The notes under the pieces: generated by a model
The model's input: only the letters and a program-made list of their open reading frames with translations
What the model was told of the DNA's origin: nothing
Databases searched by the model: none
Made by a program: the position numbers and the translations under genes
Shown here: positions 1 to 38,265 of the stretch, one piece after another
Layout: each line of letters begins with the position of its first letter
Numbering within the stretch: position 1 is the stretch's first letter
Source: an uncultured Bacilli bacterium
GTDB taxonomy: Bacteria > Bacillota_I > Bacilli_A > RF39 > UBA660
Length of the DNA stretch: 64,000 bases
Reading direction: 5' to 3'
Assembly: GCA_934098515.1 (NCBI GenBank)
Contig: CAKOOK010000001.1
Span: 89,076-153,075, forward strand

Positions 1-81
1 ATATTTATCACTAATCATAAATTCGTTTACATCAAATTTCATTCCTTTAGGAGCAATCTCACTTTTAAATGTATTAGACAT
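1..81 (-). CDS. VirB4/TrsE-like T4SS ATPase, 5' end only (gene runs off the left edge)
   Basis: The ATG at 81-79 opens MSNTFKSEIAPKGMKFDVNEFMISDKY. It is too short to appear in the ORF track. The IAP..i.F....i.dKY segment normally follows the N-terminal domain in Firmicute VirB4 proteins. It overlaps the upstream ORF stop by 8 nt. Confidence 0.4.
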   Translation of the reverse strand, partial: MSNTFKSEIAPKGMKFDVNEFMISDKY

Positions 82-631
82 TACTCATCACCGTCCCATA
101 CTCATTTTTTGTTCCTCCATTAAGGAAGTTTTGTAACAAGAACTTTAAGTCATCGTCACTTGCTTGTCTTGAATTTAAGCCGCAGCTTGCTAAATTAGCA
201 ATCATTGTTTGAACTCTCTTTTGTACTACATCTAACTTTTTATCTCTAAATAAGAAGAAGTATTCTGTATCAACCGCATTAACACTACTTCCACCGAACA
301 TTTCAGCTTTTTGAATATCTTGATTAATTAATTTTCTTACAGTTTGATTTTGAGCATTGTCATATTGAAGTTGTAGTTGTGATAAGTATAGTTTGATATC
401 TACTGGTCTATCGGCAACTACTAGCCAGAATTCATAATCAATTGTGTTATAAAAGTTTCTTAAATTAAAGATAATGTTATTTTGTGTTTGATAATCTAAT
501 ATGAAGATATTTTTAGGTTCAACTTTTATACCGGTTACATAGTAATTATTATTTAGGATAATCATTCCATTTTGAATTGCCTTAACTGGTACCCAATCTT
601 CTGAGTACTTACTTGTCATCTGTTTTGCCAT
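74..631 (-). CDS. VirB4/TrsE-family N-terminal domain protein, encoded as a separate 185-aa ORF
   Basis: WVPVKAIQNGMIILNNNYYVTGIKVEPKNIFIL resembles the conserved N-terminus of Gram-positive conjugative VirB4 ATPases (Tn916 Orf16 / PrgJ type). The ORF stops before any NTPase motif. Confidence 0.5.
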   Translation of the reverse strand: MAKQMTSKYSEDWVPVKAIQNGMIILNNNYYVTGIKVEPKNIFILDYQTQNNIIFNLRNFYNTIDYEFWLVVADRPVDIKLYLSQLQLQYDNAQNQTVRKLINQDIQKAEMFGGSSVNAVDTEYFFLFRDKKLDVVQKRVQTMIANLASCGLNSRQASDDDLKFLLQNFLNGGTKNEYGTVMSNV

Positions 632-932
632 AGCTATTACACCAACCTTTCCAATAATAAACTCGATTATTTGTATAGTATGTATATACGTTTTTAATGA
701 ATGTTCTTACATTGTGCTGATTAGGTAGAGGAACTATTAAGAACGTGCATACAAAAGCTGGAGTTAATATTAAGAGTGCTGTTTTTATGTCATTAGTTTG
801 AATTGATAACATAAGAACGAAGCTTACTATAATTCCAGTTGCAAATATCACCAGGTCTGTTGTATTAAATAGTCCCAATATCAGCATGGATTTTTTTGAG
901 TTAGCTGGTATCAAGTAATTATTGTTTCCCAC
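609..932 (-). CDS. Small two-TM membrane protein, VirB3/PrgI/TcpE-like by size, topology and position
   Basis: 107 aa with two hydrophobic helices. It sits immediately upstream of, and overlaps, the VirB4-like ORF. Confidence 0.45.
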   Translation of the reverse strand: MGNNNYLIPANSKKSMLILGLFNTTDLVIFATGIIVSFVLMLSIQTNDIKTALLILTPAFVCTFLIVPLPNQHNVRTFIKNVYTYYTNNRVYYWKGWCNSYGKTDDK

Positions 933-948
933 TTTTTATTCCTCCTTT

Positions 949-1395
949 TTAAATGTGCTTCCCAAGATGAAGTTCTAATCTTTTTTTTACTTCTTGAGCT
1001 ACCATATAATTTGCATAATAATTAACTAAAGTTAACTGTTTCCCATTTTCCGGTATCATAAGGCCTAATCTTTTTGCATCTTCTCTTTTTTTTAGAAGCT
1101 GCTTATCTATTTCTTTTCTTATTAATGATGACATACTTTCTGGTATCTCAGTGAGTACTTTGATTTTTTTTATTAAAAAGTATTTTTTTATTTCAGATAT
1201 ACTTTTATTTTTTAGTGGTCCTTCAAGTTTACCACTTTGATAATCAACTAATGCTGAATTCATTGCAGCTTCAATTGACTTTAAAATTTCTTCATCACCT
1301 AGCTGCCAGTAGTACTCACTTAACTCAATGTACTTTTTACAAAATTGTAAATCACTTTCTCTTTGTGGTCCATTTATAAAATTATCTATATTCAT
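949..1395 (-). CDS. Hypothetical cytoplasmic helical protein
   Basis: 148-aa ORF with no TM segment. Its start is coupled to the stop of the VirB6-like gene (shared nt 1395). Confidence 0.5.
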   Translation of the reverse strand: MNIDNFINGPQRESDLQFCKKYIELSEYYWQLGDEEILKSIEAAMNSALVDYQSGKLEGPLKNKSISEIKKYFLIKKIKVLTEIPESMSSLIRKEIDKQLLKKREDAKRLGLMIPENGKQLTLVNYYANYMVAQEVKKRLELHLGKHI

Positions 1396-3503
1396 TATTT
1401 CTTATCCTTTTGTTTTTCTACAGTGTTTGCAAAACTATTTGCTTTAACTTGATCGCCAACAGCGAATGAAATTTTTCTTAGTTTTTCCATATCTTCTGGC
1501 TGTAAACCATTTGGACCTACTTTGCCTGCTTTATCAAATAACTTGCTTAATTCTTCAATACTATGAACGCCATTCTTTTCAAGGATACCGGTTATTACAT
1601 CTTTGCCTAATACATTCATTGATTTTTCCATTTGTTTACAAATTGTTTCACCTTGCTGTTTTATGGCATCACTATATATTTCTTTATTAAATTTTTCTCT
1701 AAGAGATTCTCTTTGTAATTCTTCAAATTTACTTTTAATTATTTCTGGGTTTAAATCTGAGACTGGTATATCGGTTCCAGCATCATAGTGTCTTGTATTT
1801 CCATTTGCATCTGTAAAGTCATAGGCTGTTCTGAATTTAACTTTTTTACCATTTTGATAATCCTTAAGTGCACCATTTTTGGCATCCTCAATTGATTTAT
1901 CTATAAAAGCGTTAAATAATGTATCAAATCCAGCCTGCAAATTCTTAGCAGCTGTTAGCTTTTCATTTGATGCTCCACCAACATTTACAAATCCATCTAT
2001 TTGTGTTGCTTTCTTTGTAGCCCAATCGCCAATTAATTTATCAACAGGTTCTTGATTAGGTCCGAATAGTTTATCAGCTTTATCAATGGCATTTCTTCCA
2101 TGATTTTTGACTGCATTAATGTCTGTTTCATTTTGAACTCTTGCGGTTGTAATAGCATCTTGTACTTGGCTCCAATCTGATACATTTCCATTCTGCCATC
2201 CTCTACGTCCAGCATTTAATGCACTAGGTATAGTTCCTGGAATATCTCTTATTGTTCCTATTGCAGCCCTTCCGACACCACGTAATACATGTCTTTTCCC
2301 ATTCTCGTCTTTTTTAAAACCTTCAACTATAGCTTTGCCGTTATTCCAAATTGGTTTTGCAATTACTCCAGCAGCAGCTCCGCCAAGAGAAGCAGCTCTT
2401 TTTGCATATTCATTATCGTTTAGTTTATCTTTAATTCTCATAGCTGGTATTTTAACATTGAAGATATCTTCAATAAGTTTTGGTGCGTCTTTTGCAAATT
2501 TTAAGATTCCTAAGATTACTACTACTGTAGCTATAACATTAATAAGGAAATTGCCATCTGTTGCAAATATGTTTACATCTGAAACGAATGAGATTAGAAG
2601 CATTGCAAAATTTATTATTATTATTCTTTCAAAAACTTGAAGATATGTCTTAGTAAATTCACTGAACCATTTATCGAAAGGACCACCTTTAGGTTTGGTT
2701 ATTCTTAAAAATATTGGAATTGGTGCGATTAATTTTAATGCGCCTAATTTGGCAGCTCTAACTCCTAAGTCTAGTGAAAATGATAAGAATAAGTATGCTG
2801 CTACTACTCCGGCTATTGTACTTAATGGAAATAGGTATTCCATATTATCTTCTGCTATACCATTTTTTAAATCACTATCTTGCATAAAATTATGAAGGTC
2901 AACTATACTGTTTTTAGATTTATCTGCTAATTCTTTATATCTTGGACATAATTTGGCGGAAGATGTTTCACATTCTGTTAAAGTTACCGCTTCTCCGTTT
3001 TCATTAAGTGGGTGGTAAAACGCGGTAAAAATTGTTGTTGAAACATTTAAAGCGCCTTTCCCGTTACCGTTTTCTCCAGTGTCCGACACAGTTGAACCCA
3101 TAATTAAATTACTAATTGTATTGTTTTCAACTATATGATTTTGAAAAGTTTGCATGTATTCACATATTAATGGAAATAGTGTAATTAGGACAACTGATAT
3201 TACAGTATTTTTAACTATATTTTGGACTGATTTATCTCCTTTGTTAATTGAATCTGGATCAACAATTCCCAAAATAATATTATACGCAAAAACAAATAGC
3301 ATTACTATGCCAATTATTGTATATATTCTTCTAGATATAATACCGACATTTTCTGTTGTAAATACTTCTACTTTACTAACTACTTCAAATAATTGGTAAC
3401 ATAAATTGATTGCTAAATAAATTACGTAGTCAATTGTAAGAAGAATTCCGTAAAAAGCATTTATTAGCCAACTACCGACTATACCTCCTGTAAGTGTTCC
3501 CAT
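1395..3503 (-). CDS. VirB6/TrbL-like polytopic membrane protein with a long soluble C-terminal region
   Basis: 702 aa. The N-terminal ~380 aa contain multiple TM helices and the C-terminal ~320 aa are hydrophilic. Position relative to VirB3/VirB4-like genes is typical of Gram-positive T4SS channel proteins. Confidence 0.5.
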   Translation of the reverse strand: MGTLTGGIVGSWLINAFYGILLTIDYVIYLAINLCYQLFEVVSKVEVFTTENVGIISRRIYTIIGIVMLFVFAYNIILGIVDPDSINKGDKSVQNIVKNTVISVVLITLFPLICEYMQTFQNHIVENNTISNLIMGSTVSDTGENGNGKGALNVSTTIFTAFYHPLNENGEAVTLTECETSSAKLCPRYKELADKSKNSIVDLHNFMQDSDLKNGIAEDNMEYLFPLSTIAGVVAAYLFLSFSLDLGVRAAKLGALKLIAPIPIFLRITKPKGGPFDKWFSEFTKTYLQVFERIIIINFAMLLISFVSDVNIFATDGNFLINVIATVVVILGILKFAKDAPKLIEDIFNVKIPAMRIKDKLNDNEYAKRAASLGGAAAGVIAKPIWNNGKAIVEGFKKDENGKRHVLRGVGRAAIGTIRDIPGTIPSALNAGRRGWQNGNVSDWSQVQDAITTARVQNETDINAVKNHGRNAIDKADKLFGPNQEPVDKLIGDWATKKATQIDGFVNVGGASNEKLTAAKNLQAGFDTLFNAFIDKSIEDAKNGALKDYQNGKKVKFRTAYDFTDANGNTRHYDAGTDIPVSDLNPEIIKSKFEELQRESLREKFNKEIYSDAIKQQGETICKQMEKSMNVLGKDVITGILEKNGVHSIEELSKLFDKAGKVGPNGLQPEDMEKLRKISFAVGDQVKANSFANTVEKQKDKK

Positions 3504-3513
3504 TTTTGTCCTC

Positions 3514-3861
3514 CTACTCTATGCATGTTGTGTATGTATCATTAATGAAACTTAATAAAAGGTTTAATATTATTGGCAAAAAGAATAACACAACAACTAA
3601 AATTAATCTTGTAACAAGTTTTTTATTAACTTTTTTATATTCTTCTGGATCTTTGTTTACTAGTGCTGATATATAGTCATAAGTTGAGTATGCAATTACT
3701 AAAATTGGGCCTAAAATTTTCATGTATTTGAAAATATTTGATAAATCTTCCATTGTTGATTCGCCCAAAATTCCTTCACAAGTTTCTTCTGTTAACGCGT
3801 AAACATTATTATTTATAGTTAAAATTAAACCTAGTATTATAAGCCAAGCCTTTTTTTTCAT
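3514..3861 (-). CDS. VirB2/TrbC-like pilin-type small protein, paralogue 1
   Basis: Start moved to ATG 3861 (GAGG upstream). Signal peptide MKKKAWLIILGLILTINNNVYA is followed by two Pro-containing TM helices split by a Lys/Glu loop. One Cys lies near the mature N-terminus (TCEG) and one near the C-terminus (TTCIE). Confidence 0.5.
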   Translation of the reverse strand: MKKKAWLIILGLILTINNNVYALTEETCEGILGESTMEDLSNIFKYMKILGPILVIAYSTYDYISALVNKDPEEYKKVNKKLVTRLILVVVLFFLPIILNLLLSFINDTYTTCIE

Positions 3862-3927
3862 ATTAATCAAACCTCTATATACAATATAATTTTAATATAA
3901 AATCATGCATATTGCAAGGAAAATACT

Positions 3928-4830
3928 TTAATTATTTTTATATGCATTTTCATTTTGATTTTTGGGTTCGTAAATATCAGTTATTTGAATAAATAGTGCT
4001 TGTCGTCCCATTGAGTCATAGCTTTTATTGAATTTTTTTCTTGAAACTTTGATTTCTTTTTCGTCTTTTAATGGGTCATTTATGTAATAATTGTCTTTAT
4101 CCATACCAATTACTACAACAACATGAGCATTTTTTGGATATGTGTAGGTTTTAGATTTATCATAACTGAACCATTCATAAACATCTTTAGCTTCGGTGTA
4201 ATCGGCTGTTGTCCACACTAGAACAGGATAACCACTTTGAACATATTCTTCTAATGGCCTTTTATCATTTGAGGTAAAAACGTGACCGGCAGTATCTTCT
4301 GGAAGCATTTCTTTAAATATGGAATATATAGAATTTTTTATAACTGGTAAGAATGTCCCCCAGCCTCTTTTGGGTTCACTTGGGTCTCCAGCATAATATT
4401 CACTAGGGTCTGGCCCGTAACGAACACCATTTTTTTCATAAACGTCTTCTTTTGGAAGAAATGTGTCAACATATTTCTTCATATCAATATCAATGCCAGC
4501 ATAATTAAGTAACATTGTTGCACTAGCTACTTCACATCCATTTGGATAATCTGGATTTTGCTTTACTAGTGGAAAGTTTTTAGTAATATAGCTATATCGT
4601 AAGTTACTATAGTATTTATCTAATAAGTCTTCATACTCATATATACTATAATTATTTCCTCCTTTTGAGAGTATTAGTTGGTTTGTAAAGTAGTCATCTT
4701 TTAATGATGGAATTATTGCATGCTTTAATTTTTCTTTTTCACTAGTAAAAAGTTTATACCATATAAAATTGCTTGATAGGATTGTTATTATTAATAAGGT
4801 TATTATAGTAAATTTGTATTCTTTTTTCAT
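3928..4830 (-). CDS. C39-like (YvpB-type) papain-fold cysteine peptidase, membrane anchored
   Basis: N-terminal TM segment. Cys motif QNPDYPNGCEVASATMLLNYAG and His motif NAHVVVVIGMD..YYINDP. The start is ambiguous (GTG 4839 or ATG 4830). Confidence 0.65.
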   Translation of the reverse strand: MKKEYKFTIITLLIITILSSNFIWYKLFTSEKEKLKHAIIPSLKDDYFTNQLILSKGGNNYSIYEYEDLLDKYYSNLRYSYITKNFPLVKQNPDYPNGCEVASATMLLNYAGIDIDMKKYVDTFLPKEDVYEKNGVRYGPDPSEYYAGDPSEPKRGWGTFLPVIKNSIYSIFKEMLPEDTAGHVFTSNDKRPLEEYVQSGYPVLVWTTADYTEAKDVYEWFSYDKSKTYTYPKNAHVVVVIGMDKDNYYINDPLKDEKEIKVSRKKFNKSYDSMGRQALFIQITDIYEPKNQNENAYKNN

Positions 4831-4911
4831 ATATATCACGATTTAATTATAACAAATGGTTATAGTAAATGTTTTTTTATAGTTAATATTTTACATTTTA
4901 TTAGTTATTTT

Positions 4912-4940
4912 TACAAAAAAAATCTCAGTAATCTGAGATT
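4912..4940 (-). terminator. Strong rho-independent terminator after VirB2-like paralogue 2
   Basis: Minus strand AAUCUCAG-AUUA-CUGAGAUU followed by UUUUUUGU. Confidence 0.8.
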
Positions 4941-4945
4941 CTCAA

Positions 4946-5272
4946 TTAGTCACAATTCCAAGGACTTAAAATGCAGTCTTGACATTTTTTGAAGTTATCA
5001 ACTGGCATATCTTTGTATCCATTGATAGTTCCAAATAGCCACATTACTACTGTTGGTACGAAGAAAATTAGTACGCCAGCAATTGCACGATACATTAAAC
5101 GCTTACTAGCAACTTTAATATCATCATCTTTACTTCCAACTACTGCTTTTCCTAAATCGAACATACCATATCCAATAATTAATAATGGAATAGCTATTTT
5201 AAATACTGTTAGGATCCAACCAATAAATCCTAATACGTCTGACGCTTGATCACAAAATCCGGTAACGTTCAT
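4946..5272 (-). CDS. VirB2/TrbC-like pilin-type small protein, paralogue 2
   Basis: 108 aa with two TM helices (..KIAIPLLIIGYG.. and ..LIFFVPTVVMW..) and a charged loop. Cys at position 7 and a C-terminal KKCQDCILSPWNCD. A strong terminator follows. Confidence 0.5.
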   Translation of the reverse strand: MNVTGFCDQASDVLGFIGWILTVFKIAIPLLIIGYGMFDLGKAVVGSKDDDIKVASKRLMYRAIAGVLIFFVPTVVMWLFGTINGYKDMPVDNFKKCQDCILSPWNCD

Positions 5273-5331
5273 AATTCACATCTCCCTTACATAATTAAAT
5301 TTTATCTAAATTTTTAGTTATTGTCAACAAA

Positions 5332-6396
5332 TTATTTGAAAAGGCCGAAAAAACTTGTACTTCCTTGTTTTCCAAACCCTAGTTTTAGTAATAATTTGTC
5401 AACTACTAATAGTCTGTCTGCTCGGTCGTTTATTACCGGCATATTATAATAAACTTTAAATTTTGTTTCATATTCAAAGTTTGATAATTCTTCATCCTTA
5501 ATTGCACTTTGATTAAGTATTATTTTTCCATCTGTAATTTTTTCTCTAATGTTAATGTCTTTTTTGAGTGCTTTATTGAGGCTTATTGTTCCTGGATTTA
5601 CTAAATATAAAATATCATGACAAAGTTTTTTTTCTGATAAACCATTTAGGTCAATGAGGATAATTTCAGTGTCTTTTAATGTGTTTATTTTATATTTTAA
5701 ATCTTCAACTGATGTACAAAATGATATGTCACTATCTTTTAGATAAATTGAGTCTTGTTTAAACATTTCGAATGCTTTAACTTTATAGTTGATTCTTAAT
5801 TGTTTAAGCATCATGTACATTAGTGTTGTTGCTCCTGCATGCTCAGTTATATTTTGAATACCAATGATTCTTGCATTTGTTTTAATAGATTCTTCTTCTT
5901 TAACATATCCTGGATTGTAGTCTTCGTTGGAATATGTATTACTTTGATATACTTGATTTCCAAAGGTATTTGGACCAGTTTTATTTATTTCAATACTCTC
6001 ACTTTGATTCAAACTATTTATATATTTAGTTACATCATTTAATGTGTTTGGGTTTGAAAGTAAATAGTTTATGCCAGCAGCATTTCTTGTAAAGTTGTAG
6101 TAGCCGTTTTGAACTAATAATGATAGATAACTACTACTGTTTACGAGCTCACTATTATTAAGTAGAAGTACTGTTTTGTTTGGGCCAAAGAAACTTAGGA
6201 ATCTAAGGACTTCTTTAATATCAAAGAAGTTTTTGATGGCGGTTATATCTATTACAGCTTTACTATATAATAGATTACCTAGTTCTAGTTCGATTGTTTC
6301 TCTAGTAAACTCACCGGTTAAGGTTTTTATTGAGTTTATGTTAACATTATCAATAACTTTACTATTTTGATTTTTAATTATTATGTTTATATTCAT
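5332..6396 (-). CDS. ParA/MinD-fold protein with a degenerate Walker A and an N-terminal receiver-like region (TadZ/CpaE-like architecture)
   Basis: RIIGIQNITEHAGATTLMYMMLKQL aligns to the deviant Walker A (G.KGGvGKTT) but lacks the lysines. IILIDLNG looks like a Walker B. The N-terminal ~130 aa have an alternating beta/alpha pattern. Confidence 0.4.
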   Translation of the reverse strand: MNINIIIKNQNSKVIDNVNINSIKTLTGEFTRETIELELGNLLYSKAVIDITAIKNFFDIKEVLRFLSFFGPNKTVLLLNNSELVNSSSYLSLLVQNGYYNFTRNAAGINYLLSNPNTLNDVTKYINSLNQSESIEINKTGPNTFGNQVYQSNTYSNEDYNPGYVKEEESIKTNARIIGIQNITEHAGATTLMYMMLKQLRINYKVKAFEMFKQDSIYLKDSDISFCTSVEDLKYKINTLKDTEIILIDLNGLSEKKLCHDILYLVNPGTISLNKALKKDINIREKITDGKIILNQSAIKDEELSNFEYETKFKVYYNMPVINDRADRLLVVDKLLLKLGFGKQGSTSFFGLFK

Positions 6397-6407
6397 AGAA
6401 TCACCAT

Positions 6408-6872
6408 TTAGAAGACATCATTTTTAGGAAAATAGATTGGTTTTGTTTCACCAGTTACTGGGAATGTAAATATCTCTCCCATGATTGGTAAATCAACTTT
6501 AAAAAAGACAGTTACTTTGTAGTAAGTCTTTTTAATATTTCCACTAGTATCTTCTGTTCTTGCAATGCAGTATTTAAATTTTCTTGAGTTTGTGTTGCTT
6601 GCTTCGAATCCATGTGCACTTTCATTGGATTGTGATGCTACATAGTCAGGGCAACTGCTATATACTAAGTAACCTACATTATTTAAATAGTCTGATATTT
6701 CATCGACTGTTGCATCGCTTATCCCTTCTCTTTTTTCGATGATATTAACGATACCATTTTTTACTTTGAAGGCTTTAGAGTAGTTTACAGATATAGCTAG
6801 AAAGCTTGTAAAAAGTACTATAAAGACAATAACGATAGAAAAAATCCAAGTTCCACCTATCGCTTCTCTCAT
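6408..6872 (-). CDS. N-terminally anchored secreted protein, possibly TadE/pseudopilin-like
   Basis: MREAIGGTWIFSIVIVFIVLFTSFLAI is a short polar leader, then Gly-Gly, then a ~22-aa hydrophobic segment. No Glu at +5, so the assignment is weak. Confidence 0.35.
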   Translation of the reverse strand: MREAIGGTWIFSIVIVFIVLFTSFLAISVNYSKAFKVKNGIVNIIEKREGISDATVDEISDYLNNVGYLVYSSCPDYVASQSNESAHGFEASNTNSRKFKYCIARTEDTSGNIKKTYYKVTVFFKVDLPIMGEIFTFPVTGETKPIYFPKNDVF

Positions 6873-6882
6873 ATTTTACCTA

Positions 6883-7128
6883 CTAATTAGTTGCTTCACT
6901 ATTTGGACATTTAACATCTACTGTAGTTGTACATGCATCGTCTTCACAATAATAGCAATCACATATTTCAGTAGTACAGTTTGGACAAGTGGCTGCTGAG
7001 CAATGAAGTTTAGATAAAATATTTGATTTCATTGATGGCCAGATAAGTGTAGTAAATACTACTCCTATTGCAGCGATAGCTACTACTGCTACTGCAGTCA
7101 TACTTAATTCACCTGAAGCTTCTTTCAT
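6883..7128 (-). CDS. Small Cys-rich pilin-like protein (Flp-like N-terminus?)
   Basis: 81 aa with a strong RBS (AGGAGGAATAAATAATG). MKEASGELSMTAVAVVAIAAIGVVF is followed by a tail with 9 Cys (CSAATCPNCTTEICDCYYCEDDAC..KC). Confidence 0.35.
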   Translation of the reverse strand: MKEASGELSMTAVAVVAIAAIGVVFTTLIWPSMKSNILSKLHCSAATCPNCTTEICDCYYCEDDACTTTVDVKCPNSEATN

Positions 7129-7159
7129 TATTTATTCCTCCTTATCTTAAGTTAATTAT

Positions 7160-7190
7160 ATAATAAAAAGAATTGTAAATCAATTCTTTT
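7160..7190 (-). terminator. Rho-independent terminator after VirB2-like paralogue 3
   Basis: Minus strand AAGAAUUG-AUUUA-CAAUUCUU followed by UUUAUUAU. Confidence 0.7.
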
Positions 7191-7600
7191 TAGCAATTGT
7201 TTGGATGGAATAGACACTCTGTACATGTTTCATATTCGCCTTGATAATCAGTCCAATCTTTTACAGTTGATAATGTAATATCAATAATTGTTGGTAAGAG
7301 CATAATTATTATACCAACAAGAATTCTTTTACCTAGTGTTTGAACACATTTTTTTAGTTCATCTTCTTTTCCTGCTTTAACTCCGTTATAGAAGATAAAG
7401 ACTCCTTGACCTATAATTATTAGTGGTACAAATAGTTTGATGAACATGATTATATATCCAACAAATCTCATTACGTTTTGGATTTCTTCTCTTGAACACA
7501 TGTTTTCTCCTACTGCTTCAGCGTGAACAGTTATGGGTAAGATTAAAAAAAGTAATAGTAAATATTTATAGTATTTTTTATTCGTAGTCATATCCATCAT
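7190..7600 (-). CDS. VirB2/TrbC-like pilin-type small protein, paralogue 3
   Basis: Signal peptide ending VHAEA, two Pro-containing TM helices and a KEDELKK loop. Cys near the mature N-terminus (NMCS) and a C-terminal CTECLFHPNNC. A terminator follows. Confidence 0.5.
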   Translation of the reverse strand: MMDMTTNKKYYKYLLLLFLILPITVHAEAVGENMCSREEIQNVMRFVGYIIMFIKLFVPLIIIGQGVFIFYNGVKAGKEDELKKCVQTLGKRILVGIIIMLLPTIIDITLSTVKDWTDYQGEYETCTECLFHPNNC

Positions 7601-8714
7601 CTTCCTTTTGCTCTGGCATTTTAGTTACTAGTTTATAGATTACGTAACCGCATATTCCAAGTAATATTAATATTATTAAGATTAAGCCAAAGTTACTTGA
7701 TTTTTTTATTGTTATTGTGTAGTCTTTAGTATCACCATTTTCTGCTGTAACAGTAATGACTACTTTACTTTTATTTTTTAGGTTTGTATTGTTTTTTATT
7801 TCGTATGTTGATGAGTCACTTTCAGTTTCAACAATCATATCTAAAGTTTTGTCACTCTTATTTATTTTTAGGGTGTACTCAGTTACATCTGGTTTAAATT
7901 CGATGTTGTATCCTTGAATTTCAATTTTTGATAGGTTCGTATTGTTATCTTTTTCATCAGCATAAGAAAGGATTATTCTATATACTCGGCTTGTATCATC
8001 TTCAGCTTTTACAGTTATTAATATTGGCTTATCAATGTCGATATTTTCGTTGTTTTCAATTTTAACTGTTGCTTTTTCACTTTCTGGCTTAGCAGTAATT
8101 TCAATGTTTGTTATGTCTTTATTTATTTTTAAGTTGTATGTTTCAACGTCTCTACTAAAGATAAAGTCTGTACCCTTTAAAGTAAGCTCTTTTAAGTAGT
8201 TGTTACTATCTTTTAAAGTACTAGTAGTTGTAGTAGTTGAAGTTGTAGTTTTAGAGGTAGTTACATTTGGTTTTGTAGTATTTGGCTTATATATTTTTTT
8301 AGTTGTTGTAGTAGTCGTTGTTGTTTTCTTAGTTGTAGTTGTGTATGCTAGGCCATTACTTGTTCTTGAACAGTCGTATGATGCTAGGATAGCACAGTAT
8401 TTTGGGTATGCGTCACTTCTACAAGCACCACTATATGCGGTACATGAACTTTTGGCAACAAAGTATAGTGGGTCTTTGTTACCATTTGAACATTTTACTA
8501 GTCCTTCAGTGTAGAACTGTGTTTGCCAGGTTCCACTATAGCAGGTTGCTTTAACGCAGTGACCGAAATATCCTTGATTAAAGTTTGCTTGGCCATAACT
8601 TGCTTGAAAGTCTAGACATGATTGATAATCTTTTACATATCCAACATCTAAAGCTGCATTAGCTTTTAAGGGAATTATAATTGATAGCATTGCTATTAAT
8701 AAATACTTTTTCAT
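7578..8714 (-). CDS. Surface adhesin: Cys-rich head, Thr-rich linker, two cadherin-like beta-sandwich repeats, C-terminal TM anchor
   Basis: Signal peptide, then 10 Cys in aa 30-115. Linker TTTKKTTTTTTTTKK..TTTSTTTTTST. Repeats of the form L.EL.L.G..F.F....Y.L.I..; C-terminal LILIILILLGICGYVIY. Confidence 0.65.
   Translation of the reverse strand: MKKYLLIAMLSIIIPLKANAALDVGYVKDYQSCLDFQASYGQANFNQGYFGHCVKATCYSGTWQTQFYTEGLVKCSNGNKDPLYFVAKSSCTAYSGACRSDAYPKYCAILASYDCSRTSNGLAYTTTTKKTTTTTTTTKKIYKPNTTKPNVTTSKTTTSTTTTTSTLKDSNNYLKELTLKGTDFIFSRDVETYNLKINKDITNIEITAKPESEKATVKIENNENIDIDKPILITVKAEDDTSRVYRIILSYADEKDNNTNLSKIEIQGYNIEFKPDVTEYTLKINKSDKTLDMIVETESDSSTYEIKNNTNLKNKSKVVITVTAENGDTKDYTITIKKSSNFGLILIILILLGICGYVIYKLVTKMPEQKEDDGYDYE
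8217..8342 (-). repeat. Thr/Lys-rich low-complexity linker coding tract
   Basis: aa 125-166 of the 378-aa adhesin. It produces the spurious poly-Val antisense ORF at 8200-8514. Confidence 0.8.
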
Positions 8715-8722
8715 ATTACCTC

Positions 8723-8764
8723 CAAAAAAAGATACCGATTTGTTAAACCAAATTTGGGTATCTT
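8723..8764 (-). terminator. Terminator/attenuator after the SPNTG protein gene
   Basis: Minus strand AAGAUACC-N20-GGUAUCUU followed by UUUUUGGAGG. The T-tract runs into the RBS of the next gene. Confidence 0.6.
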
Positions 8765-8801
8765 CAAATCTATATTAATAATATCATAAAATTATTAATA
8801 T

Positions 8802-9398
8802 TTAAATCTTTTTGAATACATTTTTCTTATTTAAAATAAATAGTCCACCAATTAATACTGCTGCTGATGCGGTTAATGCTAGGTAATAATCTTCTACTCC
8901 AGTGTTTGGGCTTTCTTCTTTATTACTTGGTGTTTCACTAGATGCTTCGTCTTTGTTTCCTGGATTAGTCGGAGTTGAAGGTGTATACTCGGTACCGCCT
9001 ACCTTTTGTGAGCAGTTATAGAATGTTTTTTGAGTAAAGTATACGTAAGCGCCTGTATCTGTACAAGTTGCACCTTCTTTTATTGCAGATGCAGGAGCAC
9101 CAGCGTCTATTATGGCGTTTGGTGTAGTGTTACCATTTGCACAGCTTACTGCATAAGTATTTAATTTCTTATGAACGTTTTTGCTGTTTGTACAAGATAC
9201 TTCGATACATTCTAGGTAGTAGCCAGCAGTGGCATTAGATAAGCTAGTGCCACCATTTTGATTGGCTGCTTCTATACATTTGTTTTTTGCATCTGCTTCA
9301 TCTTTAACATTCCAGATGGTTGTTGTTGTATTTTGATCTACTTTTGCAAATACACTTATAGGCATTATAAGTAATAGACTAATAAGTATTTTTTTCAT
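8802..9398 (-). CDS. Secreted Cys-rich protein with an SPNTG sortase sorting signal
   Basis: Signal peptide and a Cys-rich domain homologous to the head of 7578-8714 (..YYLECIEVSC..VSCANGNTTP). C-terminal SPNTG, a hydrophobic stretch, then NKKNVFKKI. Confidence 0.65.
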   Translation of the reverse strand: MKKILISLLLIMPISVFAKVDQNTTTTIWNVKDEADAKNKCIEAANQNGGTSLSNATAGYYLECIEVSCTNSKNVHKKLNTYAVSCANGNTTPNAIIDAGAPASAIKEGATCTDTGAYVYFTQKTFYNCSQKVGGTEYTPSTPTNPGNKDEASSETPSNKEESPNTGVEDYYLALTASAAVLIGGLFILNKKNVFKKI

Positions 9399-9405
9399 AT
9401 TATTC

Positions 9406-12400
9406 CTACTTTCCTAAATATTCTTTCATTTTTTTATTTTTCTTACGAACTACTATTATTATACCCGTTCCTAAGATTATTACACTTCCAATAATTACAG
9501 CAGTCATTTCAAGTGCTTTGTTATAACTATCTTTTTGAATGTCAATTGAGTATATGTTTGTAGCTCCATTTTCAGCAACAACTTTAATTCTAACTGTACT
9601 AAATCCTGTTAGTGAGTTGTTACCATACATATATACTTCTGACCTACTGCTTGTTGGTGTTGCGGTTATGACTAAACTCTTTTCTCTTTTGATTTTGATT
9701 GTATAGTCTAGTTTTTCTGGTGAAAAGTCTATTCCGTAATCTTTTACTGTTAATGATGAAAGTGTGACGTCGTTAGATATTTCTAGGCCCGCTTCTTTTC
9801 TAATTACTGTTACGGTATATGATTTTGTTTGTTTACCATTTTTAACAGTTATCTTTAGGTTGTTAGCACCAACTTTTAGGCCTCTATCTCCTTCAACTGT
9901 GGCAAAGGCGTTGTCACTTTCTGGGAAAGCATATACATTTACTGATGAGTATTCGTATGGAACAGTTACTGAGTATTCATAGATTTCTTTGTTAAAGTCA
10001 AGGGCGGTTCCTTCGATTGTTAAGGTGTCTAGATAAGCACTTGTACTAGTTTCTTCTTCTGCACCTTTTTTAATAAATGTTAGAACGTAACTTCTTGTTA
10101 TACCAGACTCACTTATTACTTCAAGAACTGATGTTGTAATATCTTCAGTTAGTTCTATTTCACGAGGTTCATTACCTTCAACAAATGATGATGTATCACT
10201 TGCTAGTGTACCATTGATACTTACTTTTTTAGTGTTTTTTGGTACTTCAATGTTATAGTCTGTTACGTATGGATCAAATTCAATTTTACCTTTACTTACT
10301 GTTAAATCTGTTAGAAGGTTGTTAGATACACGGTTATCTGTTCTTGTAGCGATGATTGTGTAAGTTCTTACTTTGCCTTCTTTGTTTTTGATTTTGATTA
10401 AGATTTTATTTTCACCATAATCTAGGTCTACTGTTCTTGGTTCGAAACCTTCAACGTATGATGCATCAGAACTTGTTAGAGTTGCAAATACACTTATTTT
10501 ACTACTGTTTACTTCTATTTTATAACCCATTGATAATGAGTCAAAGCCAGCTAGTGTTTTGTCATTTTTAAGTCTATTTGATAGTAGTGAGTATTCACTT
10601 GGCATAACGTCTAAGTAAGCGTTTTCTCCTTCAATGCTATTTAAGGTTACTGCTACATCGTTTGCATCTTTTACACTTAATGTTTGTAAAGTATTGGTAA
10701 TATCTGCATCATGAACTATTGCAAACATTGGTCTACTTAAGATTCCTTTTTCATCTTTTACCCATGCATAGTATAGACCTGCTTCTTTTTGTTCATAAGC
10801 AACTGCATTTGAATCGGCAAAGTCTTTCCAGATGCTATCTACTGTTGGGTTTTCAGAGTTATCTAAATAATAGCTTTTAACTTCATTAGTTATTTTTCTA
10901 CCTTTAATTGTGATTGTACCTAATCCTTGATTTAGCAATGATGCGGTTATTTCAATTGCAGGTCTTGTTCCATTTGAGCATGATACTAAGTATGTTTTAT
11001 GGCATGTTCCATTTTTAACTTTATCGCATGTGTTTTCGGTTAGTTCAACTGGATTTTGAGTATAATCTTTTGCGCAAGTGAACATATCCATTACATCAGT
11101 AGCATCAGTTATTTTATTATTTTTCTTTTCGTAACAGATTTTGATTTTTTTACTTGTATCTGTTACGTCTGTTTGTTTGTCACTAGTTTTGCAATTTTTT
11201 TCACCATCACCATTTAAAGCGTTGCATTCATCTTCAGTTTGGACTGATGCCTCAATTGCATATTTATTTGATAGGTCTTCTTCAGACCAAATGTATTTGT
11301 TTTCTGTTTCATTATGGTAGCATCTAGCTTCTACTTGTTCTTCTTCATCTGCACATGATGATTTATCCAGTACTCTTGATGTTAGGTTGTTACGATATAC
11401 GAATCCTTCTTTACCATTGTAGGTTACTTTGCAGTACTGATTATTTGAGTATGAGCAAGCTGATGTCACGCTTCCATTAATTGTTACTTTTTCAGCACAA
11501 GATATTTTATCATTTGCTTTTTTGTTTATTTCACTTTCACTAGAATAAAAATCTGTAGTTCTTAGGGTATATCTTGTTTGACTTTTACAACTTTCAGGAA
11601 GTACGTCAAAACTAGTTACTAGCAAGTTACGGTAAACTTTAGTAGTTGTATTTACGGCTACACCGTTTACTTTTGTAACAATACAAGTTGGGTTAGCACC
11701 TGATGTTTCACAAGTTGTTACGTATACCTCATCTCCACATGATACTTCGTAACCACCAGCTGATGCGTTTGCTTTTGCATATCTTACATCATTTATTGGC
11801 TCAGAAGTTATGCTTGGTGTTGGGACTGGGGTTACTGGTGAAGGATTACCACTACTACATGCTGAAGGTTTAGTTTCACTATAATACTTTGTGTCTAATC
11901 CTGTGTAATTTTTACCATTATAAGTAAATGCACATAGTGCTCCTTGAGAATTACCACTACAAGTTGTTACTTTAATTTGCGAACATTTTTTGATTGTTTC
12001 ATTTTTTCCAGAACTATTTTTTACTGTAACGTCTGATTTTATCCAAGCTTGTTTATTTACTGTATAGCCACCATTTGTATTACAATCGGATGGTTTTGTA
12101 TAATTATAGTATTTGCTATTCAAACCTGAATAAACCTTTCCATTATAAGTAAATGAACATATTGCACCTTGTGAGTTCCCGTTACATGTTGTTACATGGA
12201 TTTGCGAACATTTCTTTATTTTTTCATTGCTTCCTGAACTGTTTTTTACTGAAGTGTCTTGAGTTATCCAAGCAGTTTTGTTTACTTGGTATCCACCACC
12301 TGTTACGGTAATGTTAGCAATTAATTTGGTCCTTTGGAAGCCATAATAAAGTTCTACCTTTGCATTTCCTACACTTGTACCTTTAATAGTAGTAACTACG

Positions 12401-12723
12401 CCGCTTCTTGATACATTGTTTGTTAATGAAATAAAATCATTTCCTTGTAAAATATTATTACTTCCAGAAGTTCCTCCTGCGTCTGTTCCGTAGCCACATT
12501 TTGTTGCTATATCACGTCTAATTTCGACTGATTCTCCAACTTTAACTGTATAATTAAATACATCGCCTTCTTTGCAAGATTTTGCGGCTAGGGTGTCATT
12601 GTTTTGAACTTCTTTTTGTGATTCGGTTTTACTATTATTGTTTAAACTTATCTTGGATATACTGAAAAAAATTATTGGTAAGATAAGTAGTAATAATAAA
12701 TATAGATATTTTTTCTTTTTCAT
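9406..12723 (-). CDS. Large surface adhesin (1105 aa): Ig-like N-domain, four ~75-aa Cys-containing modules, Cys-rich middle, four cadherin-like repeats, TM anchor
   Basis: Signal peptide; modular repeats read directly from the translation; C-terminal AVIIGSVIILGTGIIIVVRKKNKK. Confidence 0.7.
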   Translation of the reverse strand: MKKKKYLYLLLLLILPIIFFSISKISLNNNSKTESQKEVQNNDTLAAKSCKEGDVFNYTVKVGESVEIRRDIATKCGYGTDAGGTSGSNNILQGNDFISLTNNVSRSGVVTTIKGTSVGNAKVELYYGFQRTKLIANITVTGGGYQVNKTAWITQDTSVKNSSGSNEKIKKCSQIHVTTCNGNSQGAICSFTYNGKVYSGLNSKYYNYTKPSDCNTNGGYTVNKQAWIKSDVTVKNSSGKNETIKKCSQIKVTTCSGNSQGALCAFTYNGKNYTGLDTKYYSETKPSACSSGNPSPVTPVPTPSITSEPINDVRYAKANASAGGYEVSCGDEVYVTTCETSGANPTCIVTKVNGVAVNTTTKVYRNLLVTSFDVLPESCKSQTRYTLRTTDFYSSESEINKKANDKISCAEKVTINGSVTSACSYSNNQYCKVTYNGKEGFVYRNNLTSRVLDKSSCADEEEQVEARCYHNETENKYIWSEEDLSNKYAIEASVQTEDECNALNGDGEKNCKTSDKQTDVTDTSKKIKICYEKKNNKITDATDVMDMFTCAKDYTQNPVELTENTCDKVKNGTCHKTYLVSCSNGTRPAIEITASLLNQGLGTITIKGRKITNEVKSYYLDNSENPTVDSIWKDFADSNAVAYEQKEAGLYYAWVKDEKGILSRPMFAIVHDADITNTLQTLSVKDANDVAVTLNSIEGENAYLDVMPSEYSLLSNRLKNDKTLAGFDSLSMGYKIEVNSSKISVFATLTSSDASYVEGFEPRTVDLDYGENKILIKIKNKEGKVRTYTIIATRTDNRVSNNLLTDLTVSKGKIEFDPYVTDYNIEVPKNTKKVSINGTLASDTSSFVEGNEPREIELTEDITTSVLEVISESGITRSYVLTFIKKGAEEETSTSAYLDTLTIEGTALDFNKEIYEYSVTVPYEYSSVNVYAFPESDNAFATVEGDRGLKVGANNLKITVKNGKQTKSYTVTVIRKEAGLEISNDVTLSSLTVKDYGIDFSPEKLDYTIKIKREKSLVITATPTSSRSEVYMYGNNSLTGFSTVRIKVVAENGATNIYSIDIQKDSYNKALEMTAVIIGSVIILGTGIIIVVRKKNKKMKEYLGK
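9532..10695 (-). repeat. Four diverged cadherin-like beta-sandwich modules (~85-95 aa each)
   Basis: Recurrent L..L.V..g.i.F.p....Y.i.V......v.i.a......s.v.g.....l..g.n.i.i.v....g....Y.i.i pattern across aa 677-1064. Confidence 0.65.
11848..12297 (-). repeat. Tandem 2 x 225-nt coding repeat (aa 143-217 and 218-292 of the 1105-aa adhesin)
   Basis: GGYQVNKTAWITQDTSVKNSSGSNEKIKKCSQIHVTTCNGNSQGAICSFTYNGKVYSGL.. versus GGYTVNKQAWIKSDVTVKNSSGKNETIKKCSQIKVTTCSGNSQGALCAFTYNGKNYTGL.. Confidence 0.8.
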
Positions 12724-12750
12724 TTTACACGCTCCTACTTTCTATATATT

Positions 12751-12779
12751 ATTGTAAAGCATACGTTAAAAAAAAGCAA
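12751..12779 (-). promoter_or_regulatory. Sigma-A-type promoter candidate for the adhesin/T4SS-like operon
   Basis: Minus strand TTGCTT-N17-TACAAT, followed by RBS GTAGGAGCG and the ATG at 12723. Confidence 0.5.
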
Positions 12780-12859
12780 TAAAAAAGAAAGATGTCAGCT
12801 TAAATTTATGTTCTTGCACTTAAATGTTAATAAAAAAACATTAATTATTTATTTTTGTA

Positions 12860-12920
12860 ATATAAAAAGATACATGTTTACCTTAACTTATAATGTATTA
12901 TAGGTAATTAATGTATCTCT
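12860..12920 (-). terminator. Imperfect hairpin plus T-tract ending the dnaB-dnaI transcription unit
   Basis: Arms 12868-12882 and 12903-12918 (AGATACAT core is perfect). The loop is about 20 nt and the minus strand follows with UUUUUAUAUU. Confidence 0.4.
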
Positions 12921-12934
12921 TTTACTTACTTAAA

Positions 12935-13219
12935 TTAATTTTGAGTTAATAAAATATATTGAGCAAGAAGATTTTTAAAATTTTCTATGTATACTAATAA
13001 AGCTTCTAAAAAGTCATCTTCGCTTTCTAGTCCATCTTTCATATCTAGTATTTCTTTGCTTTTTAGATAATTTAAATCAACTTTTGAATCTTCAGCTAAT
13101 TTGTCAATAATAGCATTTATTTCTTTTACCGAATTTATGATTTCCATTCTTTTGTCTGGAATATCTAATGTTTTAAAAGTTTCCATGTACTCACTGAAGG
13201 CATCGTTAAATTCAGTCAT
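12935..13219 (-). CDS. Hypothetical small acidic protein
   Basis: 94-aa ORF. Its start overlaps the stop of the upstream gene (TAATG), and a hairpin lies downstream. Confidence 0.5.
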   Translation of the reverse strand: MTEFNDAFSEYMETFKTLDIPDKRMEIINSVKEINAIIDKLAEDSKVDLNYLKSKEILDMKDGLESEDDFLEALLVYIENFKNLLAQYILLTQN

Positions 13220-16004: not shown

Positions 16005-16057
16005 GGAATCACCCTCTTCTTTTTTATATTCTACATATTTTTTTATTTATTTACAAG

Positions 16058-16086
16058 TTAAAAAAGAAAGTTTTTAGGCTTTCTTA
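16058..16086 (-). terminator. Terminator after the C1 protease gene
   Basis: Minus strand AAGAAAG-CCUAAAAA-CUUUCUU followed by UUUUAA. Confidence 0.45.
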
Positions 16087-19851: not shown

Positions 19852-19860
19852 AGTTCCTCC

Positions 19861-20616: not shown

Positions 20617-20623
20617 GGTGCAC

Positions 20624-34876: not shown

Positions 34877-34886
34877 TTTTATATTA

Positions 34887-38258: not shown

Positions 38259-38265
38259 TTTTCAC

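Follow-up and report, generated by a model that had tools for sequence, protein, structure and literature searches.

A candidate chromosomal type IV secretion system with VirB2-like pilins, probably inherited vertically, in RF39-like gut Bacilli

The VirB2-type pilins were described in a December 2025 review as absent from the type IV secretion systems (T4SSs) of Gram-positive bacteria, with the single exception of Patescibacteria, and nearly all known functions of Gram-positive T4SSs consist in DNA transfer by mobile elements (PMC12857230). The Patescibacteria T4SS, as found for example in Southlakia epibionticum, is chromosomal and relaxase-less, and it comprises a TrsD-like protein together with VirB4, PrgI, VirB6 and arrays of divergent VirB2-like pilins. 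In one species this system is essential; other Gram-positive T4SSs are without VirB2, and Patescibacteria are regarded as the unique monoderms with a potential for conjugative pili (PMC12102498; PMC12857230). In Mollicutes the T4SS machinery that integrative and conjugative elements (ICEs) carry moves both the ICE and chromosomal DNA (PMC12857230). Here we describe a gene cluster in a 64-kb stretch of DNA from an uncultured RF39-type Bacilli bacterium (contig CAKOOK010000001.1; the whole stretch is called the window), in which three VirB2-like pilin genes are located beside genes for VirB6, VirB3 and VirB4. The cluster would be a second, independent pilin-bearing case, inside Bacillota, and a counter-example to the statement that VirB2 is absent from Gram-positive T4SSs outside Patescibacteria. 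The best explanation of the locus, to which we assign a probability of about 60%, is that it encodes a vertically inherited, chromosomal, pilin-bearing T4SS of small-genome gut Bacilli (RF39-like), with DNA as its guessed substrate.

The part of the cluster that lies in the window (positions 1-12723, minus strand) contains 14 co-oriented open reading frames (ORFs), all of them present as described in an earlier reading of this DNA that was made without database searches (the sequence-only reading), and the first 28 codons of a fifteenth ORF, which crosses the left edge. The gene order is three surface proteins, a pilin, a trio of 81-, 154- and 354-aa proteins, a second pilin, a C39-like peptidase, a third pilin, VirB6, a 148-aa protein, VirB3 and the VirB4 N-terminal domain. 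This block is the promoter-proximal two-thirds of a T4SS gene cluster of about 22 kb. The leftward extension was taken from a 196-kb Hadza gut metagenome contig that is identical to the window (L001; L numbers denote the loci compared), while further leftward context was taken from the closest GTDB genome, which has a VirD4 protein of 89% identity. VirD4 was also used for a scan of one genome per GTDB species, which gave at least 411 relatives, and the best 80 of them were examined. All of these 80 were gut metagenome-assembled genomes, labeled mostly as uncultured Bacilli or Tenericutes, with a few apparently mislabeled bins (e.g., Muribaculaceae). Some of the related genomes belong to Candidatus Coprovivens, which is placed in the order RF39 in GTDB (PMC8035907).

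The genes nearest to the left edge of the window encode the core of the apparatus. The VirB6/TrbL-like protein (702 aa, 1395..3503, minus strand) is an extended polytopic membrane protein, in which a membrane domain of ∼350 aa is followed by a hydrophilic C-terminal half of ∼350 aa, with at least five membrane segments. It matched the NF045848 (MMCAP2_0566; E 7e-14) and NF045889 (Mbov_0396; E 9e-8) models over their full length, below the cut-offs, and members of its family matched TrbL_4 (7 of 24, best E 4.7e-8) and TrbL (2 of 24). A BLASTP comparison of this VirB6 to the TrbL protein of plasmid pBMB67 gave nothing significant. The 107-aa two-helix membrane protein encoded at 609..932 (minus strand), the gene of which overlaps the next one by 23 nt, matched positions 2-79 of NF045975 (E 0.002), TcpE (E 0.005) and, by BLASTP, the PrgI-family protein of pBMB67 (E 8e-6). 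Each of these matches is weak, and the protein is described as VirB3/PrgI-like because they agree with one another and with the position of the gene. The VirB4 N-terminal domain (TrsD/TraC-like) is encoded as a separate 185-aa protein (74..631, minus strand), which matched positions 99-281 of NF045975 (E 4e-15) and has a PF26593 TraC-like domain on record. The 596-aa VirB4 ATPase ORF begins in the window with 28 codons (1..88, minus strand), overlaps this gene by 8 nt and then leaves the window. The complete ATPase, as read from L001, contains P-loop_TraG, AAA_10 and DUF87 domains, matches NF045975 with 360 bits and NF045971 with 191 bits, as well as TIGR00929, and has intact Walker motifs (GTSGSGKS and VMFVDE). 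Hence, the VirB6-, VirB3- and VirB4-like genes named in the sequence-only reading were upheld by the family matches, although only the N-terminal domain and 28 ATPase codons of VirB4 are located inside the window. A pseudogenized VirB4 was considered and rejected, as the division into three ORFs is conserved, these ORFs overlap, and the length of the ATPase is constant at 596 aa; the split between N-domain and ATPase is itself conserved in 49 loci.

To the left of the window the genes follow in the order VirB4 ATPase, a 693-aa hydrolase with Peptidase_M23 and Phage_lysozyme domains, 167-aa and 162-aa bitopic proteins, a 582-aa hydrolase with GDSL and NlpC/P60 domains, a 227-aa protein, and VirD4. 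The two peptidoglycan hydrolases correspond to the VirB1-like component. The 167-aa and 162-aa proteins, which have one N-terminal membrane helix each and no family match, may be VirB8-like candidates. The search for VirD4 or TcpA to the left, which had been proposed earlier, found a VirD4 protein of the CD1115 type (774 aa, ∼8 kb left of the window), with a match of 304 bits to NF045973, above its curated cut-off of 250 bits, a PF02534 match (E 5e-54), and intact Walker A and B motifs. We rejected a module like that of Tn916 or pCW3, because TcpE gave a weak match only and the VirD4 is of the CD1115 type rather than TcpA. Between VirB6 and VirB3 there is a gene for a soluble helical protein of 148 aa (949..1395, minus strand), the position of which is conserved in several species; it is present in five loci, genes for 139-aa proteins occupy the same position in L088 and L091 (contigs of 210 and 420 kb, respectively), and the protein has no family match. 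Overall, the cluster is very probably a chromosomal T4SS of the monoderm MPF_FATA kind.

The three genes proposed to encode VirB2-like pilins proved to be members of one paralogous family. In jackhmmer searches the 136-, 108- and 118-aa proteins converged on a single family of 52 members in 29 related loci, with typically one to three copies located directly upstream of VirB6. As seen in the alignment and the hydrophobic segments, each protein of the family has two membrane helices, and the short loop between them is charged, with many Lys, Arg and Asp residues, so that both ends of the protein are predicted to be outside the membrane. An invariant Cys precedes the first helix, and a near-invariant Cys is present in the C-terminal tail, which is of two types, ending in ...YGTCGI or containing C-x2-C-x5-7-C. 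The 136-aa paralog (7190..7600, minus strand) has a signal peptide, the two helices and a C-x2-C-x7-C tail. The 108-aa paralog (4946..5272, minus strand), which has a short N-terminal tail with the invariant Cys and a C-x2-C-x6-C tail, is the best conserved copy, with 66%-85% identity in other species. The 118-aa paralog (3514..3870, minus strand), located directly upstream of VirB6, has a signal peptide, the N-terminal Cys and a ...TC-IE end. At the level of the family, 14 of 30 members matched the PF18895 (T4SS_pilin) model at E ≤ 0.01 (best 2.5e-7), and 2 of 30 matched T4SS_CagC, where CagC is the Helicobacter homolog of VirB2, while the 118-aa protein also gave a sub-threshold match of 21.5 bits to NF045849 (Mbov_0395 pilin-like conjugal transfer protein). 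A tblastn search of 72,556 PLSDB plasmids with the 108-aa protein gave no match. Homology of this family to the 126-aa two-helix protein of pBMB67 was tried as well, and it was not demonstrable (hhalign probability ∼1%, no Cys bracket).

Extended members of the pilin family were observed in L014 (744-2105 and 12444-13691), L029, L031, L035 and L042. Some have Cys-rich N-terminal extensions of 200-350 aa, and one of 415 aa in L014 has a long C-terminal domain instead. The extended members may be tip or minor-pilin variants.

The location of the cluster is the same across species. The order [pilins]-VirB6-VirB3-VirB4N-VirB4C-hydrolases-VirD4-rhodanese-like ORF is kept in loci from more than 40 GTDB species, and in most loci it is followed downstream by DedA, RmuC, and then either ftsE/ftsX/whiA or uppP/trpS/dacB/spmAB/rluB. 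In the closest GTDB genome two unknown proteins and the small rhodanese-like ORF are found beyond VirD4, and then housekeeping genes for a Mur ligase (murF-like), a D-Ala-D-Ala carboxypeptidase (dacB-like), SpmA/B-like proteins, a pseudouridine synthase (rluB-like) and a tRNA methyltransferase. The rhodanese-like ORF (∼71-78 aa; e.g., L004 14041-14256) follows VirD4 in 58 of 81 loci, mostly directly, and is then followed by DedA and RmuC. On the other side, the right-hand junction of L088 is the same as in the window, with RNase J, a C1 peptidase, DnaB, DnaI and then the cluster, while in L091 the whole island of 20 genes in ∼19 kb is located between DnaI and DedA-RmuC. The comparison across strains, which had been suggested as a check, showed the cluster at the same junction in all 24 contigs read with the exact DnaI of the species. 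No empty or different insertion sites were seen in the contigs read or in the flanks of other species, where att repeats were not searched for. No integrase, recombinase or transposase was found between DnaI and RmuC in the complete L091 island, or in the extensions. The absence of a relaxase, an integrase and a compositional break from the cluster agreed with the earlier description: the domain scans found neither enzyme, and the GC content was flat (0.28-0.33 over 1-20 kb), the same as in the flanks. A tRNA search and an Rfam search of the window also found no match.

The divergence of the genes points in the same direction. Between the window and L088, the identity is 87% for the VirB4 ATPase and 80% for the VirB4 N-domain, in comparison to 67% for DnaB and 69% for DnaI, while VirB6, the M23 hydrolase and the ParA-fold protein span 33%-49% (33% for VirB6 and 40% for the M23 hydrolase). 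The fact that the VirB4 ATPase is more conserved and the accessory proteins less conserved than DnaB and DnaI argues for old vertical descent with a constrained motor, and not for a recent transfer. The VirB core is under strong purifying selection, and the pairwise identities of VirB4 and of the neighboring RmuC are correlated (r = 0.86, Mantel p = 0.001, 21 loci). The VirB4 ATPase forms more than 7000 clusters at 90% identity; the top 120 of these are 84%-98% identical, almost all are exactly 596 aa long, and they are found on contigs of up to 1.15 Mb. In a library of representatives at 50% identity this ATPase clade is isolated, with one match at 71%, then 46% and 44%, and then 35% or less, and the nearest named VirB4 relatives (Thomasclavelia, Solobacterium, Erysipelotrichaceae) are 32%-34% identical. 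Hence, we consider it likely that the cluster is not mobile, and that it is inherited by vertical descent at a fixed chromosomal position, with dnaB-dnaI on one side and dedA-rmuC on the other. Of the two possibilities raised in the sequence-only reading, a domesticated chromosomal apparatus fits the conserved dnaI...rmuC site and the co-divergence with the chromosome, while a new ICE with its DNA-processing genes farther to the left does not, as the region there encodes the VirB4 ATPase, the hydrolases and VirD4 before the housekeeping genes begin, and neither a relaxase nor an integrase was found in it.

Three surface proteins are encoded at the head of the block. The first (1105 aa, 9406..12723, minus strand) is a putative adhesin with a signal peptide, Cys-rich N-terminal repeats, Cadherin-like β-sandwich domains (PF12733, E 5e-15, two stretches) and a C-terminal membrane anchor, and it contains 26 Cys residues. 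The second (198 aa, 8802..9398, minus strand) is a wall-anchored protein that contains Cys residues, a sortase-type SPNTG motif and a hydrophobic tail; it gave a weak Gram_pos_anchor match, and its N-terminal domain is paralogous to those of the other two. The third (378 aa, 7578..8714, minus strand) has a signal peptide, a Cys-rich N terminus, a Thr-rich linker, Cadherin-like domains (PF12733, E 1e-8) and a C-terminal membrane anchor. The earlier description of these genes as three Cys-rich adhesins was correct in that three surface proteins open the block, while their role as adhesins is suggested by the domain content. This adhesin part of the cluster varies between species.

The 303-aa protein encoded between the second and third pilin genes (3928..4839, minus strand) is a membrane-anchored extracytoplasmic cysteine peptidase of the Peptidase_C39_2 family (PF13529, E 4e-20), in agreement with its earlier designation as C39-like. 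The candidate catalytic residues are a Cys in NGCE (residue 102) and a His in HVVVV (residue 239), and the peptidase could serve in the maturation of pilins or adhesins. In L091 the Peptidase_C39_2 domain also occurs in a protein of 620 aa (14972-16834), the gene of which takes the place of that for the GDSL/NlpC hydrolase, and in L048, L049, L051, L053 and L073 443-aa proteins with this domain are encoded after VirD4. The domain thus has the appearance of an accessory module that moves about in the system.

The trio of genes between the first two pilins had been read as Flp-, TadE- and TadZ-like. The 81-aa protein (6883..7128, minus strand), formerly Flp-like, has a leader (MKEASGE), a single hydrophobic helix and eight Cys residues in its tail. 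It starts with MKEASGELSMTAV, without the G/XXXXEY motif of Flp, and has no Pfam or NCBIfam match; its gene is conserved together with those of the 154- and 354-aa proteins in other species. The 154-aa protein (6408..6872, minus strand), formerly TadE-like, has 265 homologs and an invariant MREAIGGTW N terminus, and its AF2 model (pLDDT 77) consists of a long N-terminal helix and a four-stranded sheet, an architecture which is pilin- or pseudopilin-like. None of 34 homologs matched any Tad family even at E ≤ 1, including TadE/TadF (PF07811), and the model had no significant fold match in the PDB. The 354-aa cytoplasmic protein (5332..6396, minus strand) has 1365 homologs, none of them with a recorded Pfam domain and the few named ones all "hypothetical." Its AF2 model (pLDDT 82.8) contains an N-terminal α/β domain and a C-terminal domain of the ParA/MinD fold, over which Foldseek matched MinD, FlhG, HypB and ParA at E ∼1e-5. 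The protein has no sequence family match, and its profile gave nothing against the PDB. The P-loop is conserved but degenerate (IGxxNxTxHAGxTT, HAGATT in the window), with the Walker A lysines replaced. These models suggest that the 354-aa protein is TadZ/CpaE-like in architecture only. Hence, the likeness to TadZ was kept at the level of the fold, together with gene context in other species, while the Flp motif is absent and the sequence tests for TadE fail. A Tad system was rejected, as there is no G/XXXXEY motif, no match to a Tad family, and no tblastn match in the window for a TadA ATPase or a TadB/TadC platform.

The gene context in other species is informative about the trio. The genes directly upstream of the trio in L069 and L076 are those for a T2SSE-family ATPase (PF00437, E 4.5e-26) and for two polytopic membrane proteins, and in L076 these genes are in one cluster with pilins, VirB3, VirB4 and VirD4. 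Such a VirB11/TadA-like ATPase with two polytopic proteins was observed next to VirD4 at 1143-3950 in L069, at 2-2208 in L076 and at 14991-17536 in L079. According to a 2025 review, Gram-positive T4SSs are universally without VirB11 homologs. A tblastn search of the window with the ATPase and the two membrane partners from L069 gave no match. The trio is best described as a retained part of a type IV-filament-like module. In one species (L086/L087) a six-gene module (4762-11498), consisting of genes for a 1072-aa protein, a DUF5411 protein, an 82/158/370-aa trio and a 108-aa pilin, was observed with no VirB4 within 10 kb. It is located beside SpaA-type pilin and sortase genes, and its homolog of the 354-aa protein is 66% identical. 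Elsewhere in the window (19354-22267, minus strand) a set of three genes of the type IV pilus or competence kind encodes a 547-aa T2SSF platform protein, a 251-aa A24 prepilin peptidase and a 165-aa canonical KG/FTLVE pilin, with no adjacent assembly ATPase. For an enzyme that might process the MKEASG and MREAIG leaders of the 81- and 154-aa proteins, the window offers no candidate other than this A24 peptidase.

The transcription signals around the block were compared with those proposed earlier. Upstream of the block there are dnaB (DnaB_2 domain) and dnaI (IstB-like), followed by ORFs of 178 and 94 aa, so that the neighborhood of the dnaB-dnaI operon had been correctly recognized, although the block does not abut it directly. 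These two ORFs (12935-13755, minus strand), of which the 178-aa one is rich in charged residues, have no family match and end at a strong terminator; they had no tblastn match at the same position in L088, and no gene of 94 or 178 aa was called there in L091. The terminator (12864..12922, minus strand), a strong hairpin with a U-run, ends the dnaB-dnaI-178aa-94aa unit upstream of the cluster. The fold of 12800-12940 has a free energy of −26.3 kcal/mol (z = −4.1), and none of 200 shuffled sequences folded equally well. The gap between the terminator-ended dnaI unit and the block is 211 bp. The sequence TTGCTT-N17-TACAAT (12751..12779, minus strand) is a plausible candidate promoter of the σ70 type, read from the sequence, and is followed on its 3′ side by an AGGAG ribosome-binding site (12736-12732) and an ATG at 12723. 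It agrees with 8 of 12 consensus positions, which is under the rule of the scan itself, so that the scan did not call it, and promoter-like sites in the window are not above chance (73 versus 73.7 in shuffled sequences). Hence, the block may be considered a separate transcription unit because of the strong terminator and the 211-bp gap, and not because of the promoter; the motif proposed in the sequence-only reading is present, but it is not supported by enrichment. Within the block, intergenic folding showed a hairpin with a U-run after the 198-aa gene (∼8765-8722, −20.6 kcal/mol, z = −3.1), an A+T-rich hairpin with a U-run after the 136-aa pilin gene (∼7192-7164), and a hairpin with a U8 terminator after the 108-aa pilin gene (∼4943-4915). 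The terminators reported earlier after two pilin genes correspond to the latter two, although a strict terminator scan, which A+T-rich stems escape, found no minus-strand terminators in the window.

Taking together the parts list, the intact motor motifs, the translational coupling of VirB3, VirB4N and VirB4C by overlapping ORFs, and the purifying selection, a mechanism may be proposed for the pilin-bearing T4SS. The hydrolases would breach the cell wall, while VirB3, VirB4 and VirB6 would form the membrane translocon. VirB6 and VirB4 would pull the pilins, with their two helices, out of the membrane and assemble them as a stack, in the form of a short pilus or of a conduit across the wall, and the outward-facing terminal Cys residues could staple the pilin hairpin, as a functional analog of the cyclized T-pilin or TrbC. 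The C39-like peptidase would mature the extracellular components, the Cadherin-like wall- or membrane-anchored proteins would hold the partner cell, and VirD4 would feed the substrate into the channel. By analogy to the homologous machinery of Mollicutes ICEs, the substrate might be DNA, in a conjugation-like chromosomal exchange within the lineage, and we propose this part tentatively.

Several points weigh against the proposed pilin-bearing, DNA-transferring T4SS. The assignment of the three copies as pilins comes from topology, gene position and sub-threshold matches at the level of the family. When the copies in the window were compared to pilin-like families, a check which had been suggested earlier, they were all below threshold, with PF18895 scores of 22.9 bits for the 118-aa protein and 21.1 bits for the 108-aa protein (gathering score 26.6 bits), and no Pfam match for the 136-aa paralog on its own. 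The profile of the pilin family matched only GPCR and other membrane-helix noise in the PDB. No relaxase was found in the proteins of the cluster, the extensions or the L091 island, the rest of the genome not having been searched, and for DNA to be transferred a DNA-processing enzyme of a distant or unknown kind would be required. The inspection of the flanks reached ∼20 kb on each side of the cluster rather than whole genomes. The closest system in architecture, the Patescibacteria T4SS, is thought not to be conjugative. As VirB4 and RmuC are encoded by physically linked genes, their co-divergence could in principle also reflect the co-transfer of a larger segment. Finally, the occurrence of adhesin-like genes, trio and pilin apart from VirB4 in L086/L087 suggests that the block may consist of two functional units.

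The first alternative is that the same apparatus has a role like that proposed for the Patescibacteria T4SS; it would be a pilus-bearing conduit for the exchange of proteins, signals or nutrients with other bacteria, which would support a dependent lifestyle and not DNA transfer. This could explain why the architecture is shared with the Patescibacteria system, including the lack of a relaxase, the pilin array, and a peptidase and lysozyme after virB4, and why the pilin family matches PF18895, the model that was used to find the Patescibacteria pilins. The higher conservation of VirB4 than of DnaB and DnaI, and the small genomes suggested by contigs of ∼1.15 Mb, are also consistent with it. 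On the other hand, VirD4 is tightly linked to the cluster here, while in Patescibacteria it is usually unlinked and non-essential, and the nearest relatives in sequence are Mollicutes ICE and Erysipelotrichales conjugation proteins, not those of Patescibacteria. Moreover, these bacteria have wall and sporulation genes (CotZ in the window and SpmA/B-like genes in a relative) and are not obviously epibionts, and no effector candidates were identified. We regard such an exchange role as rather unlikely, but as the main rival of the reading proposed above. RF39-like gut Bacilli are abundant and have never been cultured, and the further idea that they rely on their chromosomal, pilus-forming T4SS as Patescibacteria do on theirs, with a near-essential core organelle that connects them to other cells, appears less probable still; if true, it would be the first such system in true Bacillota, and it could be the form that links the conjugation machines of Gram-positive bacteria, the ICEs of Mollicutes and the T4SS of Patescibacteria in evolution.

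A second alternative, in which the locus serves mainly in adhesion or pilus assembly, with the VirB-like core and the trio making surface filaments and displaying the Cys-rich Cadherin-like proteins to mucus, fiber or cells without translocation, or, in a variant, functions in ComB-like DNA uptake, is very unlikely. The three surface proteins at the head of the operon would fit this role, the structural subunits may be highly expressed, to judge from the hairpins that follow the 198-aa gene and two of the pilin genes, and the adhesin-trio-pilin module is found alone beside sortase-pilus genes in L086/L087, while in L069 and L076 the trio beside the T2SSE ATPase and two membrane proteins resembles a type IV filament operon. 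However, the conserved linkage of VirD4 and the intact ATPase motifs imply the recruitment of a substrate, and ComB-type systems are without VirD4; the two wall hydrolases and the extended VirB6 fit a translocation channel, and the window is without a T2SSE ATPase and platform genes of the kind found in those loci. The weakest alternative, an ICE or a recently immobilized one at the dnaI-rmuC site with its DNA-processing genes outside the inspected region, could draw on the conjugative type of all T4SS parts, including the CD1115 conjugal family of VirD4, on the closest plasmid relatives (pBMB67-like, 30% identity), which combine the same gene order with a MobP3 relaxase, and on the variable adhesin part, but it is made most improbable by the lack of an integrase, transposase and relaxase between DnaI and RmuC in L091 or in the extensions, by the same site in species with DnaB and DnaI only 67%-69% identical and in 24 of 24 contigs, by the co-divergence with rmuC, by the absence of a compositional break and a tRNA, and by accessory genes which diverge more than the housekeeping genes, against a recent spread.

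Several other features of the window were observed outside the cluster. At 16084-18324 (minus strand) there is a gene for a secreted C1 (papain-family) peptidase of 746 aa, which contains a Big_2 domain together with a sortase-type anchor (NPKTG); it is a conserved neighbor of dnaB, being found there in L088 as well. In the region of ∼34000-47000 there is a run of some twelve ORFs on the minus strand, for which family matches are nearly absent (one DUF2357, one Flg_new). The GC content of this region is the lowest of the window, falling to 0.24 at 45-47 kb, and the region could be a foreign or defense-type island. An ORF of 2716 aa (47061-55211, minus strand) has no Pfam domain at E ≤ 1e-4, and the GC content of the part in which it is located (0.33-0.36 versus ∼0.30 elsewhere) is the highest of the window. 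The protein encoded at 55313-56302 of the window has no exact match on record.

The pilin-bearing T4SS described here occurs across a large lineage of uncultured bacteria of the human and animal gut, and no paper was found that links RF39 or RFN20 with a T4SS. It offers a handle on the biology of RF39-type bacteria, in which contact-dependent exchange would be possibly a reason for their resisting culture. It is also a testable candidate for a conjugative-type pilus in Gram-positive bacteria, and it bears on the origin of the pilin-like genes in the Patescibacteria and Mollicutes systems.

When the cluster is compared to described systems, the resemblance to Tad/Flp (type IVc) systems is confined to the trio. 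A ParA/MinD-fold protein with an extra N-terminal domain, as in TadZ/CpaE, is encoded together with two small proteins in which a short charged leader ending in Gly precedes a hydrophobic helix, and in other species a T2SSE ATPase and two polytopic proteins are encoded directly upstream. In contrast to Tad/Flp systems, there is no G/XXXXEY motif, no Tad match among the 34 homologs and no PDB match for the 154-aa protein, the P-loop is without both lysines, and no counterparts of the ATPase and platform genes of L069 were detected by tblastn in the window. The pAW63 and pBMB67 plasmids of Bacillus thuringiensis (MPF_FATA) share with the cluster a two-helix protein, TrbL/VirB6, PrgI/VirB3, a VirB4 N-domain of ∼227 aa, a DUF87 ATPase and a CD1115-family VirD4, and plasmids of this type have a T2SSE ATPase and a ParA-like AAA ATPase nearby. 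However, the VirB4 of pBMB67, which is the best plasmid match, is only 30% identical, and that system is plasmid-borne with a MobP3 relaxase.

The ICEs of Mollicutes (CDS15-CDS16-CDS17 of Mycoplasma bovis and M. agalactiae) provide the best NCBIfam matches, which are the Mbov_0395 pilin-like, Mbov_0396 VirB6-like and Mbov_0397 VirB3-VirB4 proteins, encoded in the same order. No canonical relaxase is known in these ICEs, and both systems belong to the Bacilli/Mollicutes branch. Mycoplasma ICEs are without VirB1-like and VirB8-like parts. The scores obtained here are below the curated NCBIfam cut-offs, with 16, 54.6 and 360 bits for the three ORFs that match NF045975 (cut-off 590), 32 bits for NF045889 (cut-off 70) and 21.5 bits for NF045849 (cut-off 40), and what is a single VirB3-VirB4 model of 894 positions corresponds to three ORFs here (positions 2-79, 99-281 and 294-891). 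Unlike the Mollicutes ICEs, the cluster is found at a fixed site without a DDE transposase, and it contains wall hydrolases, three pilin copies, adhesins and the trio. Hence, judging from the protein matches, the cluster is related to the T4SS of the Mollicutes ICEs but is not a member of it.

The Patescibacteria T4SS resembles the cluster in its overall plan. Both are chromosomal and relaxase-less systems of monoderms, with a separate TrsD-like VirB4 N-domain protein, PrgI/VirB3, VirB6, a divergent array of VirB2-like pilins detectable by PF18895, a peptidase and lysozyme immediately downstream of virB4, and vertical inheritance in the lineage. They differ in that the host here is a walled member of Bacillota with sporulation genes and not an epibiont of the candidate phyla radiation (CPR), in that VirD4 is tightly linked here and usually unlinked there, and in the three pilin copies with an invariant Cys at each end. 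The cluster also has Cadherin-like surface proteins, while the Patescibacteria study detected no adhesins, as well as the pseudopilin/ParA-fold trio and the C39-like peptidase. The nearest named VirB4 relatives, which are from Erysipelotrichales (32%-34% identity), suggest that this is probably a clade separate from the Patescibacteria T4SS. As far as can be judged from these comparisons, the closest system in architecture is the Patescibacteria T4SS, while the closest in sequence are the Mbov_0395-0397 proteins of the Mollicutes ICEs.

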